Shown here: one piece after another, positions 6,177 to 38,799 of the stretch
How positions within the stretch are numbered: position 1 is the first letter of the stretch
How the letters are laid out: each line of letters begins with the position of its first letter
NCBI GenBank assembly: GCA_964016885.1
Contig: OZ024744.1
Span: forward strand, 82,212,001-82,276,000
Origin: Eledone cirrhosa
Lineage: Eukaryota
Length of the DNA: 64,000 nt
Reading direction: 5' to 3'
Position numbers and translations under genes: made by a program
Notes under the pieces: model-generated
Seen by the model: the letters and a program-made list of their open reading frames with translations, nothing else
The model's database searches: none
Told to the model about the DNA's origin: nothing

Positions 6177-6532
6177 AAGCTATAATGCTGTACATACGCT
6201 CATACATACACGCACGCACGCACACGCACACACAGACACACACGCACACACACACGCGCGCGCACACACACACACACACACACACACACACACACACACA
6301 CACATATATATATATACAGGGTGGATCAGAAAACCCTCACATTAAAATGTCGGAGGTATTTTTGTTGTACTATCTGTGTGTGTGGTTGTGTATGTGTACC
6401 CCCCCCCCCCCCACACACACATGCACACAGACGCACAGACACATATATATATCTATATATTGAAGTGCATATATATATGTATATATATTAATTCAAAATA
6501 TTAACAAAATAGATATTCTTGTGATAAAGTAT

Positions 6533-6600
6533 ATTTTATTATTATACATATTTCAGAGGTACTGAGTTAACTTCAACAGTACGTCCTCATCAGATAAAAT
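6533..6600 (-). ncRNA. Minimal type-I hammerhead ribozyme (family H, copy A)
   Basis: Minus strand: AUUUUAU-CUGAUGA-GGACGUACUG-loop12-CAGUACCUCU-GAAA-UAUGUA-UA-AUAA. Core intact. Confidence 0.85.
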
Positions 6601-6654
6601 ATGATGATGCATGACATACCCTGTCATAGTAGATGGTTAAGATTCAGTCATCTT

Positions 6655-6696
6655 ATTTTATCTGATGAGGACGTACTGAAATATGTATAGTAAAAT
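6655..6696 (+). ncRNA. Minimal type-I hammerhead ribozyme (family H, copy B; stem II shortened)
   Basis: AUUUUAU-CUGAUGA-GGACGUACU-GAAA-UAUGUA-UA-GUAAAAU. 7-bp stem I, core intact. Confidence 0.85.
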
Positions 6697-7446
6697 ATAC
6701 TTGATCACAAGAATATCTATTTTGTTAATATTTTGATTTAATATTAATAACTCTGGAAAACCATAAATGTTGAGTGCTTCCAATCTATTGTAAAACTCAT
6801 TCTTTGATTTATTCATTGAACCTTGTTTAACTTTTAAATATATGTATATGTATACACACACACACACACACACACACACACACACACATATATATATATA
6901 TATATATATATATATACTATGATGGCCGCAACTCGATTTCGAGTAATGCCATCGCTTGATACTTAAGCATGAGTATCACGTACGTGGCGTTTTAGTACTG
7001 TTAGGGACTTGCCTATGGCCAGCAATGCCATGCATCGCAAAAAATGTCACATATCAAGCAATGCCTGTGTTTCAAGCTTTTTTAAGTGAGGAAATGCTTT
7101 GCACTGGGCCAATCCCACTCTCTGAACACTGAATGCATTTGCCCAAAAACTGGTCTACATCATTGGTTGCAAACAAAGTCGCAGGTTTTATATCAGAGTG
7201 ACTTTCTTATAGAGAGACGTCTTAATGAAGACTAGGAGTCTCTTGCACTATATAAAAATAAAATAATAAAAATCGTTTTGGATGGCCGTTGACTCTGATG
7301 AGTTCCTCCACCCTTTGACGGGTTTTGTTTTTCATTCTGCCCTCATCAAGCAAGCTTGGTGGGGTTGCCAGTTTAGTCGCCGACGACCCGACCATGTAAA
7401 GGTTGAACTCAGTTACATGTTACCAGTAGCGCTGAAGAGTTACCTG

Positions 7447-7617
7447 ACACACACACACACACACACACACACACACACACACACACACACACACACACAC
7501 ACACACACACACACACACACACACACACACACACACACACACACACACACACACACACACACACACACACACACACACACACACACACACACACACACAT
7601 ATATATATATATATATA
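7447..7617. repeat. (CA)n(TA)n microsatellite
   Basis: Directly visible. Confidence 0.98.
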
Positions 7618-7701
7618 CTATGATGGCCGCAACTATATGTTTATATATATATATATACATATATACACAGAGACATATACGTACACGCACACACACACAT
7701 A

Positions 7702-35370: not shown

Positions 35371-35431
35371 CTACATATATCTCAAAGATATACTCCCTAT
35401 GAATACAATTCTCTCTCTCTTTATATATATA

Positions 35432-37650
35432 TCCTGTTATAATATTTCAACTACACAAACGAAGACGGTTGAACTGCTTTACGTTGAGTACTCTCCATAT
35501 TATTACATCAAGATTGACCATACGGAATTGACCAGCTCTATCCAGTGGTGAACCTTCAAACCTAAATAAATAATGCTCCTGAAATGTTGAGCACTTCCAG
35601 ATGTAATAATGAACAGCGGCATGGGACTGACTAGATCTAATCACCATTCGGATTTTGGCTACTCTGCGCTTTGTCTACCGCCCACCTGGTCCAATGCTAC
35701 TTCCCTCTCGGAATATTCAGACTTCGACAACATTCTACGGATTATACCATAACCTGTATTGTACTGTACTGTATTGACTGAATTCTCTACCCTATACTTC
35801 AGGGCCTTTGTAATTCACACTGAATTCTGAGATTCGAACACACACTGATTCCATTTCCATATCTATATGCATTATCTGACTGCAACTTGAACTATAATTG
35901 TATTTCTCCTATGTTTTGATTTCTCCATTTTACTCCACCACCACTCTAGTTATTTTTATTTGTTTATTTATATATTTCTACCTTTTTACTTTATTAATGT
36001 GTTTTATCTACGTATTCTACTTTTATCTATCCATGTATTTTTTATTCCTTTTATTCGGATTTTTACTCGCTTGTACCCATTAGCACAGCACACTAGAATA
36101 TCTCCCCCTGAGAACCACAATACTTATAACCCGGACTATCCGGGGACCTAGATATAGTCTATTTGCGCTTCATCGAGTTTTATAATTGATTACACGCGAT
36201 GATCCGACTGTTGTGTTGGTTTTCCTGGCTGCGAGTCCGGCCTCCTGCTGCATAGGCCTCCCTTGAGTGCTTGGAAAAATAAATTGCCCCTTCTTTCGGT
36301 AAATGAAATTACTCGGAGCGGTTGATTCGCTCCGGGGCCGGACGCGCAGTCGTTTTTGACCGCCATATAGTACCTTTAAATTCTAGGCCTAATCATAACT
36401 ATTAGCTGTATCATGCCTCCCTCTACTTAAACAAATCCCCCTCTTGTGTAAATTAATAGTACTCGTTTGGTATAACGATGGCCTAACGACGATGGCTGAC
36501 TTCCCACTAGCACACCTGAAGCCTAGAATACATTCCTAGAGTGCTTGGAAAAATTGATTTCCATATCTTTCGCTAGGCGATCTCACTCGGAATGACTGAC
36601 ACGTGGTTAGGATGGGCTGGCCGGAGTCTGCAGTCGCCGCATGCTGTTTGACTGCTAAACAAGGACATAATCTTTACTCTACATCCCATTCGGATAACTT
36701 ATAGAAGATCTCTATAATACAATTAAAGTTTCTTCATAAAAGACTCTTTCTTTAACTAAACCTCGCAACCCAAAACCTTAAACATTTTTTAAAACTGTTT
36801 AATGTTTAATTTTCAATTTTCTAATTTTTTAATTTTATAATGTTAATCTTAAATTTTTTTAACTTCATCCTATAAATCTAAACAAAATTTTAACGTTCCA
36901 ATCTTATGCTCAGACATTATAACATGTATACCCCCATTATATTTACCTCTGTTAAGATACGGGTCTTTTAGAATAATTTTTTCGCGGCATTCCTGGCCTG
37001 ACTGTAGTATGACATTAATACTGACTTTTCTTCCTCTTTCTTTCTGTCTCTTTTCTTGTCGCATGACATTAACCCTGACTTTTCTTCTTCCTTGTAGCAT
37101 GACATTAATACTGACTTTTCTTCCTTTTTCTTTCTGTCTTTTTTCTTGTAGCATGACATTAACGCTGACTTTTCTTCTTCTTCCATTCTGTTTTTCTTCT
37201 CTTTGACCGGGAGGTTAGTAGCACACTATAAGCTTTAGCCCCTCACCAGATGGCCTTAAGTAGGCTGAATGGGCAGCACTTGAGGGCAACCGGCAGAAGT
37301 GGAAGATGCTAGATGGTCGGTCGTCCTCGGGTCTATGATTTTATATCTCGCCCCATGGATTTTATCTGTTACATTCATTATATTTCGAATACCTGATGAT
37401 ATCACCGGATTCATACGGAACCCGGTCATTGAAATGATCATAGTATAATAAACCTTTCAAGGATTTACACAAGTCCAGCCTCCTGTTATTTTATTATAAT
37501 ATTTAACTCCGTACGCGCAACACCAACTACACAAATGAAGACGGTTGAACTGCTTTATGTTGAGTACTCTCCATATTATTACATCAAGATTGACCATACG
37601 GAATTGACCAGCTCTATCCAGTGGTGAACCTTCAAACATAAATAAATAAA
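35432..37650. mobile_element. Unclassified 2.2-kb element with ~125-bp terminal direct repeats
   Basis: 35448-35573 is repeated at 37524-37650. Internal tandem 39-53 bp repeats at 37005-37190. Confidence 0.65.
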
Positions 37651-37667
37651 TATATAAAACCATATTT

Positions 37668-37730
37668 ATTTCATTATACATATTTCAATGACACCAAGTT
37701 AAATTATGATGTGCTTTCATCAGATAAAAT
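37668..37730 (-). ncRNA. Minimal type-I hammerhead ribozyme (family H, copy D, mirror of E)
   Basis: Exact reverse complement of 37879-37941. Confidence 0.8.
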
Positions 37731-37878
37731 ATAATATAGATCAGTTTTATAAATAAATATTGACATACCCTTAAAGAATGCGACCATTTCTGTTGGAAGC
37801 TCCCGGGAGCTTCCAACAGAAATGGTCGCATTCTTTAAGGGTATGTCAATATTTATTTATAAAACTGATCTATATTAT

Positions 37879-37941
37879 ATTTTATCTGATGAAAGCACAT
37901 CATAATTTAACTTGGTGTCATTGAAATATGTATAATGAAAT
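37879..37941 (+). ncRNA. Minimal type-I hammerhead ribozyme (family H, copy E)
   Basis: AUUUUAU-CUGAUGA-AAGCACAUCA-loop10-UGGUGUCAUU-GAAA-UAUGUA-UA-AUGAAAU. Confidence 0.83.
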
Positions 37942-38799
37942 AAATATGGTTTTATAAATATAGTTTCTATTTGTTAATATATCGTATTTTTACTCCAATA
38001 ATTTGTTGAGTGCTTTATATCAGTTATAAAAATATTTGCTTGTTGTATCCCAACAATTTAAATAGAACTTCTACACACACACACACACACACACACACAC
38101 ACACACACACACATATATATATATATATATATATATATATATTTATATATATATATATATATATATATATGTATATATATATATATATATATATATTCAT
38201 ATATAGCGTTGGTGTGTTGACTTTGTTGTGAGTGTGAGGCTATTGTTGGAGAGTTAACTTTGTTGTGAAAGCGTGAGTCTTGTTGGAGTGTTGACTTTGT
38301 TGTGTAATTTCTCCCATTACTAATTATTGCCGCAGGTCACGAATTATTTTCCTCGGTATCCGGACCTTTGTTTTCTAGTATAAAGTGTGCATCAGAATTA
38401 ACTAGGAACCCACTTCGTAGCCGTTCACCACGCTACAAATAACAGCAAATCAACAATCAGTTTGCATCCTGTCGTCTTAAACAGGAAATAGCTATTAGAT
38501 AGTATGTTCCTGATTGCGCTGTGATTTTAGTAATAGATCATGTCAATAAGAACTAATTTGGGTTAAAAAGAACACTGGGAAGCGCGCATCTTTTAAATCA
38601 ATTTCCAAATGTTTTCCTAACTTAGTGGGGGACCTGGATGGAGACTTAAATCTTGTAAAGCTTACATTTTTGCTTCTAAATGGTAGCAACTGGTGCCTCG
38701 TTATTCTGTATTTCAGAAAGAATAACTTTGTTAGACTGTATAATTACGAAACACCTAATATACCACCGCTAATACGATGGACTCAGGTCCTTGGATCTG

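Follow-up and report, generated by a model that had tools for sequence, protein, structure and literature searches.

Hammerhead ribozymes with a conserved stem II mismatch at probable ends of Hydra-clade Penelope-like elements in Eledone cirrhosa

Hammerhead motifs and element ends in the window

The window is a 64-kb stretch of the Eledone cirrhosa genome in which a pattern search returned 10 hammerhead ribozyme (HHR) core matches, against a chance expectation of 0.52. A sequence-only reading had described five full cores at three loci, and five were found, at 6551-6593 (-), 6662-6681 (+), 26409-26445 (+), 37683-37723 (-), and 37886-37926 (+); however, the copy at 6662 has lost 23 nt, and since this loss takes the 3' arm of stem II, that copy is unable to fold as an HHR. 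Additional to these five are C·C-type HHRs at 37393-37434 (+) and 28406-28438 (-). All three full stems carry C·C at position 4 of stem II, as described, and the earlier description is likewise borne out for the AUA cleavage site, the stem III palindrome, and the motifs in the flanks. An Rfam hammerhead match, proposed there as a check, was absent from the 150 listed of 177 window matches and from the 13 matches for 37600-38070. The loci, each fixed at the 3' end and ragged at the 5' end and accompanied by an inverted copy or tail, comprise the following parts, where pLTR denotes the pseudo-LTR of Penelope-like elements (PLEs).

6485..6651, minus strand: inverted pLTR copy of subfamily A, 5'-truncated and tail-less, matching long copy L098 at its 3' end (96%)
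6593-6551, minus strand: HHR core of that inverted copy, C·C at 6583/6558, predicted cleavage after 6543
6648..6834, plus strand: direct pLTR end and tail of subfamily A, HHR core 6662-6681, terminating at (TA)n
6750..6778, plus strand: bulged hairpin copy 1 (ACUC...UU-GAGU-GCU) in the subfamily A tail
26263..26329, minus strand: inverted tail piece of subfamily B, attached at the 5' end, with the 3' half of the hairpin motif inside
26328..26502, plus strand: pLTR body of subfamily B, 5'-truncated
26409-26445, plus strand: HHR core of subfamily B, C·C at 26419/26438, predicted cleavage after 26453
28388..28448, minus strand: C·C-type HHR of a separate lineage (core 28406-28438)
37383..37640, plus strand: pLTR end belonging to one more C·C lineage, outer limits approximate, HHR core 37393-37434, long-loop hairpin 37506-37568
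37644..37804, minus strand: inverted pLTR copy of subfamily C, 5'-truncated and tail-less, HHR core 37723-37683, 96% to L131
37805..38075, plus strand: direct pLTR end and tail of subfamily C, 98.2% over 273 nt to both pLTRs of the full element L131, terminating at (CA)n/(TA)n
37886-37926, plus strand: HHR core of the direct subfamily C copy, C·C at 37896/37919, predicted cleavage after 37934
37992..38014, plus strand: bulged hairpin copy 1 of subfamily C, including TGTTGAGTGCT

The coding element behind the copies

The sequence-only reading took these loci for a non-autonomous, retrozyme-like family of about 300 bp moved in trans. Instead, they are, with high confidence, the 3' ends (pLTRs), truncated at the 5' side and in part inverted, of protein-coding PLEs of the Hydra clade beside (TA)n/(CA)n microsatellites. 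Their type-I HHR leaves position 4 of stem II unpaired, as C·C or C·U, likely as a tertiary or protein contact. The full unit of ~4 kb consists of an HHR-pLTR, a single ORF (RT and C-terminal GIY-YIG-type endonuclease), a long 3' UTR, and a second HHR-pLTR. At L131, L133, and L137, window sequence 37845-38070 (97-98%) flanks the ORF region on both sides, and the distance from HHR to HHR in full copies is 3.7-4.2 kb. Among 20 loci chosen, out of 150 scored, by an RT match and a long open frame, 16 have a pLTR match downstream of the ORF on the same strand, and at 7 the HHR is present as two direct copies. For subfamily A, Hydra-type ORF pieces end 1.9-2.3 kb upstream at three of five extended loci, the other two showing no ORF. 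The first two subfamily B loci had no ORF in their 10-kb upstream regions, so that a search with upstream sequence was needed; ORF pieces were then seen upstream on the same strand at 11 of 25 loci. A full-length element was recovered for neither subfamily A nor B. The reported lack of an ORF thus holds for the window copies but not for their families, which carry an RT/endonuclease ORF, and the outcome that the sequence-only reading had named as fatal to its proposal, a pLTR of an autonomous Penelope element, largely applies, given the 98% identity of 37803-38075 to both L131 pLTRs, the ORF upstream in long copies of the other two subfamilies, and the lack of short tandem arrays among 90 loci.

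Searches of Pfam and PDB with the Hydra-type ORF gave no significant match, and the clade assignment is therefore based on motifs and alignment. Weak T3SS and T6SS rows in Pfam fell below the cut-off and were taken as chance. Over its full length, the 742-aa open frame of L125 can be aligned with 23 relatives at 35-39%. By eye, the ORF contains YRDD and VVY...YVG motifs. L124-L126 contain the Hydra-clade motifs RWR, SDKT, CNCRNKSNC, CDLC, and CRH and, on visual inspection, lack CCHH. This agrees with published C-terminal EN+ PLEs of the Hydra clade, which have RW(K/R), DKT, a CxCX5C linker, and CxxC and CxH around endonuclease E/N residues but no CCHH (Craig et al., 2021, PMC8557442). The pLTRs also show an HHR, an inverted 5' copy, and a tail, and a dinucleotide microsatellite is reached within 260 nt in 91 of 98 copies; (TA)n targets, an HHR near the 3' end, 5' truncation, an inverted copy, and a tail are shared with the published elements (PMC8557442). 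Those elements differ in being mostly <3 kb, whereas the unit here is ~4 kb with a long 3' UTR, and in having tails of 30-40 nt as opposed to ~95 nt here; the very high copy number is also unlike them (PMC8557442). By eye, Hydra-1_Obim is unlike the element in both HHR and protein. Comparison of direct and inverted pLTRs within insertions revealed no clear pattern. At L239 and L271, a reading in which a 5' pLTR of type B carries an ORF of its own was rejected: (TA)n lies between the two, and the ORF is 98% identical to that of the C-type locus L125.

A separate non-autonomous retrozyme of ~300 bp, circularized by HHR cleavage and mobilized in trans, would account for window copies that have no ORF and for top matches that are mostly short. 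It would also accord with animal retrozymes, which a recent report derives from PLE pLTRs (bioRxiv 10.64898/2026.07.22.740005). Retrozymes are, however, tandem repeats by definition, and 150-450 bp head-to-tail monomers each with an HHR were not seen at 90 loci: short head-to-tail arrays were absent, and adjacent pairs comprised 25 on opposite strands and 7 on the same strand, just 1 of these 7 lying within one subfamily (961 bp apart). Moreover, the ragged 5' ends pass uninterrupted into the 3' UTR and ORF of longer copies, and the families have ORFs where a retrozyme family would be non-coding. We consider such a retrozyme highly improbable. The window copies resemble the non-LTR retrozymes of metazoans (Cervera and De la Pena, 2020, PMC7229834; bioRxiv 10.64898/2026.07.22.740005) in a type-I HHR, AT-richness, a length of a few hundred bp, and a PLE origin, but differ in being non-tandem, having no fixed monomer, being joined to a coding element, and having an inverted architecture.

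Hammerhead fold and the stem II mismatch

Across 23 representative rows, helices I-III covary and the type-I core (C3-U-G-A-N-G-A9, G12-A-A, A15.1-U16.1, H17) is invariant; these rows were hand-picked from 46 groups and represent ~4-5 deep lineages of one genome. Comparative sequence evidence supports what had been proposed for the window folds: type-I HHRs like those of Penelope pLTRs, whose stem III is palindromic and whose structure is under selection. Helix III can form only in a dimer, and the minimum-energy structure of the monomer is an inactive rod rather than an HHR at all three loci. Monomer folding z-scores were weak or differed between strands and are not counted as support. The pairs next to the mismatch covary, and two of the pairings given in the sequence-only reading call for correction. 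In subfamily C, AAG/AUU at 37.9 kb includes a G·A mismatch where most family copies have CUU, and the U-A at stem II position 1 of the 26.4-kb copy is a minority variant in a subfamily B that is mostly U·U. This U10.1·U11.1 mismatch, replaced by A-U or G·U elsewhere, is unlike the common G10.1-C11.1.

None of the 23 representatives pairs at stem II position 4, which is C·C or C·U throughout, whereas the 7 other pairs of the stem have changed on both sides. Parsimony assigns 0 and 1 changes to the two mismatch columns, compared with 2-6 and 1-5 at the remaining stem II columns. Collection of copies genome-wide, suggested in the sequence-only reading, yielded 43,612 with C·C versus 218 with C-G, although such counts reflect ancestry. 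It is possible to imagine the C·C as an inherited accident, neutral and common only through the shared ancestor of the subfamilies. The few deep lineages in a single genome would allow this, as would the equal invariance of U2.3 in stem I and the function of outside Hydra HHRs without a mismatch; in addition, Poseidon_Ac insertion in vitro did not need HHR cleavage, according to Frangieh et al. (2024, PMC11167929). Against such neutrality, all other stem II pairs changed repeatedly, mostly on both sides, the sole fixed change at position 4 produced another mismatch (C·U), C-G variants are scattered over many subfamily backgrounds (in the 100 of 218 rows listed), and the mismatch persists between lineages with proteins only ~46-52% identical. 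We therefore judge neutral inheritance improbable and regard conservation of the mismatch, more exactly C·Y, across very distant families as real at the level of sequence.

Preservation of the two Cs for a DNA-level or linear-sequence reason, such as a promoter element or endonuclease site, would suit the strict invariance of the 5' C and a promoter said to lie in pLTRs (PMC11167929). Yet the bases flanking each C are free to vary and do so as covarying pairs, the sense strand often shows G·U at these pairs, and the distance between the two Cs varies. The first two observations point to folding of the sense RNA, and the DNA-level reading appears very unlikely.

The conserved mismatch likely acts as a tertiary/folding or protein contact. 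A role in docking, whether of stem I, of a partner RNA, or of the protein that the element encodes, is somewhat favoured; a deliberate weak point within stem II is a rather less probable role, and there is a slim chance of something else. As the sequence-only reading supposed in not recognizing it from described HHRs, neither the File S2 rows of PMC8557442 nor the 56-row alignment of PMC4209133 contain the C·C/C·Y mismatch, and it is also missing from 84 HHR matches next to outside Hydra-clade ORFs. The long stem II and 8-nt palindromic stem III seen here are likewise absent from the File S2 rows (PMC8557442). The minimal and variant PLE HHRs of Cervera and De la Pena (2014, PMC4209133) are similarly type I with a long helix II, a palindromic helix III, predicted dimer action, and mostly solitary copies ascribed to truncated PLEs, but that alignment has no such conserved loop.

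Reverse transcription starts and implications

Copies share two preferred 3' ends, ~45-55 and ~145 nt beyond the predicted cleavage site. The flanking TGTTGAGTGCT is one half of a bulged hairpin, with a covarying position paired in 73 of 74 cases, and the hairpin occurs in two copies, each immediately behind one preferred insertion end, making it a candidate RT start signal. In a Poseidon PLE, initiation is internal and takes place at two sites, the RNA used is uncleaved, and the HHR is assisted by protein (PMC11167929). Poseidon_Ac there also has a tail defined by two 3' ends, a stem-loop at the start region, and an upstream HHR; its starts, however, lie 111-118 nt inside the ORF at an AC-rich stem-loop, whereas the two ends here are in the 5' UTR, just 5' of the two bulged hairpin copies (PMC11167929).

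By the proposed mechanism, the element's own protein would nick AT-rich DNA, and reverse transcription would begin within uncleaved or re-ligated RNA, immediately 5' of either bulged hairpin. Early RT drop-off could leave ~200-270-bp pieces such as those in the window, and a second priming event could yield the inverted copy or tail. PLE hammerheads cleave poorly alone. Cleavage after AUA would occur only as a dimer via the 8-nt palindromic stem III, probably with help from protein, and would cut long transcripts down to unit length. An expression search gave RNA runs of small share only, none of which covered the stretch, a result that speaks neither for nor against transcription. Tentatively, at somewhat less than even confidence, the HHRs of this Hydra-type PLE subclade may form their own structural subclass, protein-assisted and obligately dimeric, in which the C·Y loop at 10.4/11.4, perhaps with the invariant U2.3, docks stem I or the RT, the adjacent twin bulged hairpins set two RT starts, and the ~250-nt pLTR end compactly gathers the control functions of an RT related to telomerase.

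As an element this PLE is ordinary, since both hammerheads in PLE pLTRs and truncated copies are already well described. Through the conserved internal mismatch, a tertiary or protein-assisted HHR mechanism could be tested precisely. Descriptors that require contiguous stems would likely overlook such motifs, of which one pattern alone gives >50,000 genome-wide. The twin bulged hairpins, in turn, provide a testable account of the PLE tail and of internal initiation by a telomerase-related RT.

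Hammerhead cores in the window

The five hammerhead ribozyme (HHR) cores claimed in the sequence-only reading were all found where it had placed them, and the pattern CTGATGA-N(8-38)-GAAA gave 10 matches in the window compared with 0.52 in shuffles. The cores exist, but they are not all complete, as the copy at 6662 lacks the 3' arm of stem II. Similarly, C·C at position 4 of stem II (10.4/11.4) held, but the claimed pairing is imperfect: the 37.9-kb copy carries a G·A mismatch, and the 26.4-kb copy has a basal U-A that only a minority of its otherwise U·U subfamily shares. Full copies read as type-I hammerheads in which stem I has 6-8 bp, the long stem II is mismatched C·C at position 4, and the self-complementary 8-nt stem III leaves no space for a loop. 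The predicted cut site follows AUA, a triplet known from a natural viroid hammerhead and reported as the slowest among four tested (PMC1636495). No hammerhead family was among the Rfam matches listed for the window. A pattern scan added two C·C-type motifs; five further HHR-like cores of other types probably derive from other Penelope-like element (PLE) families.

37393, + strand, extra C·C-type HHR motif
28438, - strand, extra C·C-type HHR motif
15960-16000, + strand, HHR-like core, other type, without C·C
17837-17860, + strand, HHR-like core, other type, without C·C
18890-18913, + strand, HHR-like core, other type, without C·C
23713-23740, + strand, HHR-like core, other type, without C·C
24183-24211, - strand, HHR-like core, other type, without C·C

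Copies continuous with a coding element

The proposal of a non-autonomous, retrozyme-like family fails, because the copies are continuous with a coding PLE and the 90 loci screened held no short tandem array. Three genome searches, one per locus, gave 445, 2,338, and 983 first-look candidates, so that each locus has many near-identical relatives in the 3.0-Gb genome. The loci represent subfamilies A (6.5 kb), B (26.4 kb), and C (37.8 kb). Copies have fixed 3' ends with adjoining microsatellites, ragged 5' ends and, frequently, a copy or a tail in inverted orientation; an architecture with truncation, inversion, and tails has already been described for PLEs (PMC8557442). Long subfamily C copies share 3.3 kb upstream that includes reverse transcriptase (RT) and endonuclease pieces. 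A genome query with this RT piece returned 44,148 candidates, of which 150 were scored and 20 loci chosen, long open frames being favoured. All 20 loci matched the window element; 16 of them carry a copy on the ORF strand, downstream of the ORF, and 7 have two direct HHR copies. Three (L131, L133, and L137) are units of an ORF between two PLE terminal repeats (pLTRs), with HHR-to-HHR spacings of 4.17, 4.09, and 3.69 kb and pLTRs that overlap by about 355, 895, and 1,106 bp, respectively; both L131 pLTRs are 98.2% identical to window 37803-38075. L131 carries C·U at position 4 in both direct pLTRs and C·C in an inverted copy. ORF pieces lie 1.9-2.3 kb upstream in 3 of 5 extended subfamily A loci, and for subfamily B same-strand pieces lie upstream in none of the first 2 loci and in 11 of 25 loci of a later set; no full-length element of either subfamily was recovered from the loci examined.

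Retrozyme definitions were drawn from PMC7229834 and bioRxiv 10.64898/2026.07.22.740005. No short tandem array occurred in 90 loci of 3 kb each, 62 of which held at most one HHR motif. Adjacent HHR pairs were on opposite strands in 25 cases and on the same strand in 7, and 6 of these 7 join different subfamilies.

A 742-aa, C-type frame (L125) has 172 relatives, 23 of which align with it end to end. It contains RWR, DKT, CxCX5C, CxxC, and CxH, with CCHH absent by eye; since PMC8557442 defines the Hydra clade by this set and the lack of CCHH, the element is assigned on its motifs to that clade. The L125-type ORF has no significant match in Pfam or PDB. Broken fragments also occur in the window.

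10697-11992, + strand, Hydra-type RT/endonuclease fragment
3336-4130, - strand, Hydra-type RT/endonuclease fragment
20687-21445, - strand, Hydra-type RT/endonuclease fragment
about 565-879, + strand, Hydra-type RT/endonuclease fragment
about 13818-14242, + strand, Hydra-type RT/endonuclease fragment
9209-10141, + strand, non-LTR RT fragment (Pfam RVT_1)

Separately, a 14-kb minisatellite (46096-60001; 21-bp unit, about 658 copies) has a strong G/T strand skew.

The stem II mismatch

The C·C mismatch reported as invariant is indeed conserved, more exactly as C·Y, while the other stem II pairs change on both sides. Scanning 143 sequences blind to position 4 gave 207 HHR matches in 46 groups; every group with an 8-nt stem III has a pyrimidine mismatch at position 4, whereas in groups with a 6- or 9-nt stem III the position is paired. 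Among 23 hand-chosen representatives of the 8-nt kind, C10.4 never varies and is opposed by C in 20 and by U in 3, and all 7 remaining stem II pairs show two-sided changes. Alignment cells pair in 87% of cases versus 71% in shuffles (0 of 500 shuffles), a figure that is not a probability as the rows are related. When this short alignment is also used to draw a rough tree, parsimony requires 0 and 1 changes at the two mismatch columns versus 2-6 and 1-5 at the other stem II columns.

Across the genome, a pattern that leaves stem II unspecified gave 53,301 matches (reversed control, 0), and slightly shorter flanks gave 43,612 matches with C·C versus 218 with C-G, the latter scattered over many subfamilies among the 100 of 218 listed. 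A further C·C lineage, distinct in its stem I (11,563 genome matches), and a C·U lineage lie downstream of Hydra-type ORFs 46-50% identical to L125; one locus, L277, is a full HHR-ORF-HHR unit. Neither C·C nor C·U occurred at position 4 in 84 HHR-like matches from 58 of 78 outside Hydra-type loci (L158-L235). These comparisons indicate that the mismatch is real and lineage-specific, and most likely under selection. It is not shown as a conserved feature in the File S2 table of PMC8557442 or the 56-row alignment of PMC4209133, and no paper on it was found in the openly readable text of the literature; judged from sequence, this is a new hammerhead variant, marked by a conserved C·Y loop.

Because loop 2 begins at this place in 4-bp-stem hammerheads and contacts stem I (PMC3088659), the leading guess, by analogy, is that the C·Y loop serves as a docking site. 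U2.3 of stem I (alignment A2, column 8) is invariant in 23 of 23 C·Y-type HHRs with four stem I types and variable in outside Hydra HHRs; it is a possible partner of C10.4.

Predicted ribozyme action, bulged hairpins, and insertion

PLE HHRs are reported to cleave weakly and as dimers (PMC4209133). The HHR here would likewise act as a dimer, since self-pairing of stem III would take two molecules and the predicted monomer fold is an inactive rod, its minimum-energy structure pairing the stem I 5' strand with the GAAA core. This rod may be an off-state.

6533-6603, - strand, predicted inactive-rod monomer fold
26399-26463, + strand, predicted inactive-rod monomer fold
37876-37944, + strand, predicted inactive-rod monomer fold

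The flanking motif of the sequence-only reading, TGTTGAGTGCT, forms the 3' half of a bulged hairpin (consensus RCUC-Y...R-UY-GAGY-NCU), two copies of which lie in the stretch that separates the HHR from the ORF start. The hairpin occurs in L131, L133, and L277, among the outside loci L158-L235, and in the window.

37992-38014, bulged hairpin
6750-6778, bulged hairpin

Of 51 distinct outside HHRs, 40 have the hairpin downstream (1 of 41 in the upstream control), and 37 of 46 ORF starts are preceded by its 3' half at a distance of at most 90 nt (2 of 46 in the control). The pair adjoining the 2-nt bulge is kept in 73 of 74 sequences (47 C-G, 25 U-A). The published Hydra-1_Ajap sequence opens with a region in which both hairpins can be seen; the words 'hairpin' and 'stem-loop' are absent from the main text of PMC8557442.

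Insertion ends are bimodal and cluster just 5' of either hairpin copy. Of 33 subfamily C copies, 16 stop 4-7 nt short of hairpin 2 and 13 stop 3-15 nt short of hairpin 1, with the last 4 ending elsewhere. For outside loci with two copies (12 in all), the end falls 1-6 nt 5' of a hairpin in 5 and, by eye, in one more; the remaining 6 are cut by a contig end, confounded by indels, or run on.

In a Poseidon PLE, reverse transcription is reported to use uncleaved RNA and to start at two internal sites, which define the tail, and the HHR to cleave only with protein (PMC11167929). For the element described here, what was observed directly is its architecture, the clade motifs, the covariation, and the positions at which copies end. 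The template of the window pieces would have been uncleaved or re-ligated, as they span the cut site intact, and the pieces themselves would be cis copies that terminated early after priming immediately 5' of a hairpin.
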